DNA of 64,000 nt from the NCBI RefSeq assembly GCF_050920415.1, contig NZ_CP169309.1; one strand, written 5' to 3'. This document shows positions 6,141 through 6,253 of this stretch, in pieces. The DNA comes from Escherichia coli. GTDB lineage: Bacteria; Pseudomonadota; Gammaproteobacteria; Enterobacterales; Enterobacteriaceae. Positions within the stretch are counted from its first letter, which is position 1. The number at the start of each line of letters is the position of its first letter. A program made the position numbers and the translations under genes. The notes under the pieces are model-generated. The model worked only from the letters and a program-made list of their open reading frames with translations. It did not search any database and had not been told where the DNA came from.

Positions 6141-6186
6141 ATGTATTCATTTCTATTCACTCTACACCATATTTTTCGGCGGTACA

Positions 6187-6197
6187 GGTGACGGTAT
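6187..6197. repeat. GGTGACGGTAT, candidate integrase arm-type site (left arm)
   Basis: Same 11-mer in right arm at 45803-45813. Confidence 0.3.
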
Positions 6198-6211
6198 TAC
6201 CTTAAAGGTAT
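6197..6211. promoter_or_regulatory. TTACC-N5-GGTAA family palindrome (TTACC TTAAA GGTAT), ~45 bp upstream of int
   Basis: Member of 13-copy intergenic motif family. Confidence 0.45.
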
Positions 6212-6253
6212 ACTCTCATACCGTCATGAAAATGGTTTCTATACGGGTGAATT

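Follow-up and report, generated by a model that had tools for sequence, protein, structure and literature searches.

Repeats of a CGGTAY-containing motif in both attachment-site arms of a guaA-integrated Escherichia coli prophage as probable arm-type sites of its P4-family integrase

The two ends of a prophage inserted at guaA of Escherichia coli carry copies of one short repeat, TGACGGTAT, with the hexamer CGGTAY as its minimal form, and these repeats are quite probably the arm-type recognition sites of the P4-family tyrosine integrase (Int) encoded beside them, which would probably also repress int through the same DNA. The analysis covered a single stretch of 64,000 nucleotides, referred to here as the window. 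The existence of the sites, their enrichment, conservation, covariation with integrase lineage and geometry, and the domain content that goes with them, are matters of direct observation. Arm-type sites are in this case an ordinary feature of a known kind, as homologous sites are already annotated in phage epsilon15, and the additions made here are modest, consisting only of the synonymous constraint on the copies inside int and of a family-wide rule of 12-bp tandems of the unit xxGGTAT.

The prophage, of approximately 39.8 kb, lies between two identical copies of a 17-mer, ATTGAGTGGGAATGATT, with differing flanking bases, at 6047–6063 (the attL core) and 45885–45901 (the attR core), both on the + strand, and the window reads in the order guaB–guaA, prophage, yfgI-side genes. 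The insertion site is the 3′ end of guaA, which ends at 6061 and whose stop codon (6059–6061) is overlapped by the attL core. In phiV10, epsilon15 and ZX5, the attP/attB core is reported to be this same 17-mer (PMC9782041). The element is a phiV10/epsilon15-like prophage, with an int region 98–99% identical to those of phiV10, ZX5 and the O157 typing phages, compared with 82% for the Salmonella phage epsilon15 (genus Uetakevirus), and its attL junction is found in 542 of the 5426 complete E. coli genomes. Following lambda nomenclature, attL is B-O-P′ (6047–6253), after which int (6254–7504, + strand) reads away from the core, and attR is P-O-B′, with the P arm at 45775–45884, following an Rz-like gene that ends at 45774. 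An AlpA-family gene (8751–8999, − strand; Pfam Phage_AlpA, E = 3e-5), presumed to encode the excisionase or RDF, accompanies int in all of the related phages and in many of the distant loci as well.

Several other features of the prophage ends and their surroundings were seen. A phage-borne terminator hairpin, picked up by a terminator scan at 6108–6131 (+) in the P′ arm, has annotated counterparts in phiV10 and epsilon15, does not vary in any of the relatives and replaces the native guaA terminator; since the phage thus has its own hairpin just past the attL core, integration exchanges the guaA terminator for the phage copy. The native terminator is displaced to the attR side (45925–45952), and the phage hairpin closely mimics it, with AACCCTCTGT...ACAGAGGGTT in both. 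The P′ arm also has two copies of a direct repeat, TCATTyCTATTCA, at 6084–6096 and 6147–6159, 63 bp apart and both largely kept in relatives, to which the AlpA-like RDF, IHF or some other factor may bind. The 17-bp core is itself involved in two inverted repeats, each of which takes up one of its halves, namely CACTCAAT...ATTGAGTG on the P side (45856–45863/45885–45892) and GGAATGATT...AATCATTCC on the P′ side (6055–6063/6082–6090), and both are possibly attP-specific core-type or accessory sites. Finally, an ORF for a 619-aa membrane acyltransferase (41976–43835, − strand) adjoins the lysis cassette; its placement would resemble that of the O-antigen acetyltransferase of phiV10, a serotype-conversion gene.

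A sequence-only reading of this DNA had drawn attention to an 11-mer shared by the two prophage arms, and GGTGACGGTAT is indeed present, without mismatch, at 6187–6197 and at 45803–45813, on the + strand in both cases. The left copy, described there as abutting an int-proximal palindrome, itself supplies the 5′ arm of that palindrome, a perfect inverted repeat at 6189–6197/6218–6226; the right copy, placed about 70 bp from attR, ends 71 bp before the core at 45885–45901; and the additional GGTAC repeats mentioned in the vicinity are found at 6181–6185, 45790–45794 and 45821–45825. When up to one mismatch is allowed, GGTGACGGTAT has 9 matches in the window, against 0.62 expected, a number reached in none of 100 shuffles. 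The leading GG of the 11-mer varies in relatives, and the conserved core is therefore the 9-mer TGACGGTAT, with its hexamer CGGTAY. This 9-mer is present in the window in 7 copies against 0.39 expected (starting at 6189 +, 6218 −, 6424 +, 6514 +, 6766 −, 31821 − and 45805 +), six of which fall in the att arms or in the first 520 nt of int. The copy at 6766–6774 (−) was dropped as a site because it is not conserved in relatives. Another exact copy, at 31821–31829 (−), is situated deep inside the prophage, far from att.

The arrangement of the copies is as distinctive as their number. The pattern CGGTAY-N6-CGGTAY occurs exactly twice in the 64 kb, at 6180–6197 and 45808–45825, once in each arm, with 0.00 occurrences expected, which gives each arm a 12-bp tandem pair with units at 6180/6192 and 45808/45820, respectively. 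The repeated motif differs from the core sequence and is present in both arms of attP (P, 45805–45825; P′, 6180–6226). On the P′ side, the first tandem unit is CGGTAC at 6180–6185 (+), which is CGGTAY in all 11 close lineages and reads GACGGTAY in those from Enterobacter and Klebsiella; the second site is TGACGGTAT at 6189–6197 (+), the core of the 11-mer, homologous to a site annotated in epsilon15 as “protein_bind integrase” (locus L001, 842–851). They are followed by a putative site, AGGTAT, at 6206–6211 (+), which is CGGTAT in the Klebsiella lineages and overlaps a −10-like hexamer, and by the inverted copy at 6218–6226 (−; ATACCGTCA on the + strand), 28 bp before the start of int. On the P side, TGACGGTAT at 45805–45813 (+), again the core of the 11-mer, corresponds to the epsilon15 integrase site at 620–629 of locus L001, and is followed by the second tandem unit, CGGTAC, at 45820–45825 (+), both of them lying in an invariant block.

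The reconstituted attP was aligned with those of epsilon15 (reportedly the subject of Kropinski et al. 2007), phiV10, Tyrion, BUCT554 and BUCT711. In the P arm, all 20 columns of the block TGACGGTATATAAAACGGTA are invariant, compared to 40 of the 88 columns in the rest of the arm (Fisher p = 1.7e-6), and in the P′ arm so are all 9 columns of TGACGGTAT, among 6 lineages that include phages with int DNA 75–82% identical. The second P′ site (6189–6197) is moreover invariant in the 11 attL lineages, and the inverted copy at 6218–6226 is conserved more loosely than this 5′ copy, being degenerate in 4 of the 11. Relatives from Salmonella, Enterobacter, Klebsiella and Citrobacter likewise show the motif unchanged. 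The sequence-only reading had named a lack of conservation in the att arms of homologous elements as the point on which its proposal would fall, and the motif proved invariant in both arms across the five diverged phage attP lineages. In Tyrion (L003) and BUCT711 (L006) the spanin gene is extended, at about 620–623 of the locus, and its TGA stop is the TGA of the P-arm TGACGGTAT. A scan of IMG/VR with Int returned only loci that are 99–100% identical, which are uninformative on divergence.

The protein encoded next to the P′ sites has the architecture expected of an arm-binding recombinase. Int carries the Pfam domain Arm-DNA-bind_3 (PF13356) at residues 2–87 (E = 4e-20) in addition to Phage_int_M and Phage_integrase, and its N-terminus matches solved structures of arm-type binding domains, PDB 3JU0 (E = 2.5e-12) and 3JTZ/3RMP. 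The first 100 residues are also the best-conserved part of Int among the relatives. By its Pfam domains and its place in the published classification, it is a P4-family tyrosine integrase of the IntSXT subgroup, epsilon15 cluster, where Smyshlyaev et al. describe the guaA-targeting integrases of the epsilon15 type as a cluster of the DUF4102-bearing IntSXT subgroup situated beside the P4 cluster (PMC8138268). Its identity to P4 Int is 28%.

Several known systems resemble what is seen here. Epsilon15 shares with the window the 17-bp core, the guaA target and the 10-mer GTGACGGTAT at four homologous positions (one in P, one in P′ and two in int), marked as “protein_bind integrase” at the places homologous to 45804–45813, 6188–6197, 6423–6432 and 6513–6522. 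These site data come from the feature table of GenBank AY150271.2, the annotation itself being a prediction. The epsilon15 record differs in that it marks single 10-mers only: the 12-bp tandem partners and a palindrome at 6552–6563, described below, are unmarked, and the inverted copy is called an RNase III site. The record of phiV10, the phage closest to the window prophage, has no integrase-site annotation, and a full-text literature search for GTGACGGTAT retrieved unrelated primers only.

The record of phage P4 (NC_001609) lists 12-bp “attP arm sequence repeats”, whose unit is GGGGGCAYA. Their plan consists of a tandem pair in each arm (3965–3942 and 4174–4151), one more copy, inverted, at the ATG of int and another within the gene, and it recurs in the window with identical relative orientations. 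When gaps are counted as the bases between the core and each 9-mer, the P pair lies 59 bp from the core in the window and 54 bp in P4, the P′ pair 113 and 114 bp, the inverted copy 154 and 152 bp, and the intragenic copy 450 and 447 bp, so that all core distances agree within 5 bp; in both elements int points away from the core and the RDF belongs to the AlpA/Vis type. The P4 arm repeats are said to have been described by Pierson and Kahn in 1987. P4 differs from the window element in its target, tRNA-Leu rather than guaA, in having one intragenic copy as opposed to two or three, and in its motif, since GGGGGCAYA and TGACGGTAT are not the same recognition sequence. With a matching arm layout, a different motif and only 28% identity between the integrases, the two elements thus have the plan in common but not the specificity.

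The copies inside the int reading frame are found at 6424–6432 (+; codons R57–I60) and 6514–6522 (+; codons R87–I90, 450 bp from the core), are both annotated as integrase sites in epsilon15, and both read CGTGACGGTATCA, encoding R-D-G-I. At the synonymous positions of R87, D58, D88, G59 and G89, a total of 1 minor codon is observed in the 11 lineages, compared to a mean of 16.9 for int columns of the same amino acids, and none of 100,000 resamplings gave a value as low; the codons next to the copies do vary. The first copy is present down to Int relatives of 59–62% identity. The RD dipeptide (R57–D58, 6422–6427) is a two-residue insertion compared with the HPI and HAI7 arm-binding domains and with the integrases of the TGGTAT lineages, and it supplies part of the first intragenic TGACGGTAT copy. 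Further downstream, the palindrome CGGTACATACCG (6552–6563, codons A100–D104) is present in all close lineages, with its codons V101, T103 and D104 synonymous-invariant in the 11 lineages, and is a possible further, paired Int site. A more far-reaching and tentative proposal, to which we give somewhat less than an even chance, is that the intragenic copies, perhaps together with the palindrome, are working Int sites kept by synonymous selection, which extend the P′ arm, and that xxGGTAT constitutes a recognition code. With such sites the P′ arm would reach some 500 bp from the core, which is a distance that P4 keeps as well, and Int would be able to loop or roadblock its own gene; the xxGGTAT unit would be a code readable throughout the epsilon15 cluster and determined by the residues near D40, R42 and R47.

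To look beyond close relatives, one genome per species was scanned with the Int alignment, which yielded loci whose Int is between 99% and 34% identical; the distant ones are integrated and show attL only, and conservation there concerns the P′ side. The sequence before int is otherwise unalignable in the distant loci, and several of them are not at guaA. Before int homologues down to about 45–55% identity, the motif is either kept or altered according to the integrase lineage. In Buttiauxella, Brenneria, C. sedlakii, Tolumonas, Cupriavidus, Rahnella, Aggregatibacter and others, GACGGTAT is found in a 12-bp tandem together with the inverted TACCGTCA; the Gallionellaceae and Nitrosomonadales loci have aaTGGTAT or caTGGTAT, and the Janthinobacterium locus gaGGGTAT, in 12-bp tandems as well. 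Across 14 distant loci (43–73% amino-acid identity) the lineage hexamer, which is CGGTAT in most, TGGTAT in Gallionellaceae/Nitrosomonadales and GGGTAT in Janthinobacterium, reaches, within the 300 bp preceding int, 16 times its density in 104 kb of flanking sequence, and 10 of these loci have the 12-bp tandem in int orientation. The motif classes are associated with variants of an N-domain strand, FRYDYRINGRRE, FRYNYTINxRQE and FRYNYRVNGRYE; as there are three motif classes only, confounded by phylogeny, this covariation is suggestive. A protein-mode search of a phage collection returned no phages with a 40–75% identical Int.

Two of these loci deserve separate mention. The Rhodanobacter locus (L108), with a 34% identical Int, has ACGTCCG in 10-bp tandems in the 300 bp before int, beside a tRNA gene, and this unit in place of xxGGTAT fits a remote branch having an arm-site specificity of its own. 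The Brenneria locus (L095) has two more tandems of the form CGGTA-N7-CGGTA approximately 4.0–4.2 kb downstream of the int start, past a truncated int (336 aa), which may belong to the arm of a second or rearranged element.

A nearly identical unit has been assigned to an integrase in another system. In ICEMlSymR7A, the 283-bp attP carries five arm-type motifs, TGKTGGTATC, all of which are required for integration by IntS, intS adjoins attL, and attP-bound IntS limits the transcription of intS (PMC11963761). The unit shared with the window is xxGGTATC. ICEMlSymR7A differs in being a Mesorhizobium ICE situated at a tRNA gene (phe-tRNA), in having T instead of C at position 5 of the motif, and in encoding its RDF far from intS. 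The sites P1, P2 and P′1–P′3 of lambda Int share with the window the heterobivalent logic and the short repeats in both arms that are unlike the core; they belong to another N-domain family and have another motif and spacing.

In the model that we propose, Int would be heterobivalent, with its C-terminal domains binding and cutting the 17-bp core and its N-terminal Arm-DNA-bind_3 domain binding the accessory sites, which would comprise the P pair (45808–45825), the P′ pair (6180–6197), the weaker direct copy (6206–6211), the inverted copy (6218–6226) and the copies in int. By bridging arm and core sites, and aided by DNA-bending proteins, Int would build the intasome that integrates the element (attP × attB), and the same bridging, with the AlpA-like RDF taking part, would serve excision (attL × attR). 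We infer binding by Int, a role in the intasome and autoregulation from the features of the sites and of the protein.

As for the last of these, int is transcribed away from the core, and its promoter is therefore predicted to lie in the P′ arm (6064–6253), among the sites, which would probably let Int repress its own gene through them. A scan for sigma-70 promoters passed none in either arm; the best −10-like hexamer is TATACT at 6209–6214, which is TATAAT in epsilon15, and it may represent the −10 element of int, with TGACGGTAT over the −35 region. Precedents for such autoregulation exist in KplE1 IntS (PMC2951348) and in P4 Int (PMC7286903), the latter finding being that of Piazzolla (2006), as cited in PMC2951348 and PMC7286903. 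In KplE1 (CPS-53), with its IntS/TorI pair, the integrase promoter lies in attL among arm-type and RDF sites and Int exerts negative autoregulation (PMC2951348). The window would be alike in the predicted placement of the int promoter in attL among the sites and in its predicted regulation; KplE1 differs in an arm motif that contains TAAA and in its integration at argW. Transcription of int in lambda runs towards att, and autoregulation by way of the arm is accordingly absent.

The sequence-only reading had offered the repeats as integrase or excisionase sites alike. The first part of that claim is favoured by the arm-binding N-domain of Int, by the P4 layout and by the epsilon15 annotation, and the second is the less likely one. 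If the repeats were sites of the AlpA-family RDF (8751–8999), they would serve to bend the arms, direct excision and perhaps repress int, and this is in line with RDF sites being typically direct repeats about one helical turn apart (PMC7498355), and with TorI sites overlapping the intS promoter in KplE1 (PMC2951348). The AlpA-like gene is also present with int throughout the close relatives and in several of the distant ones, and for that reason covariation separates the two proteins poorly. However, copies that occur in both arms, inverted, and inside int do not form the usual RDF pattern, the 12-bp spacing notwithstanding, as they are not clustered in one arm; they match the P4 arm repeats one for one; and the closely similar TGKTGGTATC is assigned to IntS in ICEMlSymR7A, where RdfS has its binding positions elsewhere, with no clear consensus among them (PMC11963761). 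Six loci (L093, L095, L098, L107, L109 and L110) that have no AlpA/Vis HMM match within 3.5 kb retain the arrays as well, a piece of weak evidence, as an RDF could lie further away, and the other conserved P′ repeats, TCATTyCTATTCA at 6084–6096 and 6147–6159, are free to be RDF candidates. Taken together, a role as RDF sites is distinctly unlikely. Phage TL-2011b was considered as a natural Int/RDF swap (int 98.7% identical, AlpA-like 68%) and was set aside, since its AlpA-like region has stops and its record is without the P arm.

It is also conceivable that the inverted pair TGACGGTAT...ATACCGTCA (6189–6226) forms a hairpin in the int leader RNA, e.g. an RNase III site, which controls the stability of the int mRNA. 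The RNA of 6189–6226 folds to −16.1 kcal/mol (z = −3.8 vs shuffles), and the epsilon15 record has an “RNaseIII” site over the homologous 39 nt, but such a hairpin leaves the P-arm pair, the intragenic copies and the distant arrays unexplained. Moreover, the 5′ arm is invariant in 11 lineages, and in Tyrion, BUCT554, Superficieibacter and Pseudocitrobacter pairs are lost through changes on the 3′ side, none of which is compensatory; given the terminator at 6108–6131 and the likely −10 at 6209–6214, the 5′ arm may not even be transcribed with int. A function as an RNA hairpin is for these reasons very unlikely. That the shared 11-mer is a chance match or a functionless relic of common ancestry is scarcely credible. 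Two 11-mer copies alone would be weak evidence, and two more 9-mer copies (6766–6774, which is not conserved, and 31821–31829) look incidental, but the enrichment, the invariance amid diverged flanks, the synonymous constraint and the recurrence in unalignable distant loci contradict a chance origin.

The repeats as arm-type sites of Int leave the understanding of site-specific recombination unchanged, and what they would explain is the recognition of its ends by a prophage that is very common in E. coli. Phages of the phiV10 type are used as reporter phages. Because they serve in this way and alter the O-antigen, it is useful that the repeats provide the exact sites to mutate for locking the prophage in or out. 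The 12-bp tandems of xxGGTAT, which integrases that target guaA have in common with related ones and which follow the P4 layout, would furthermore provide a simple rule for delimiting the att sites of this integrase clade when genomes are annotated.
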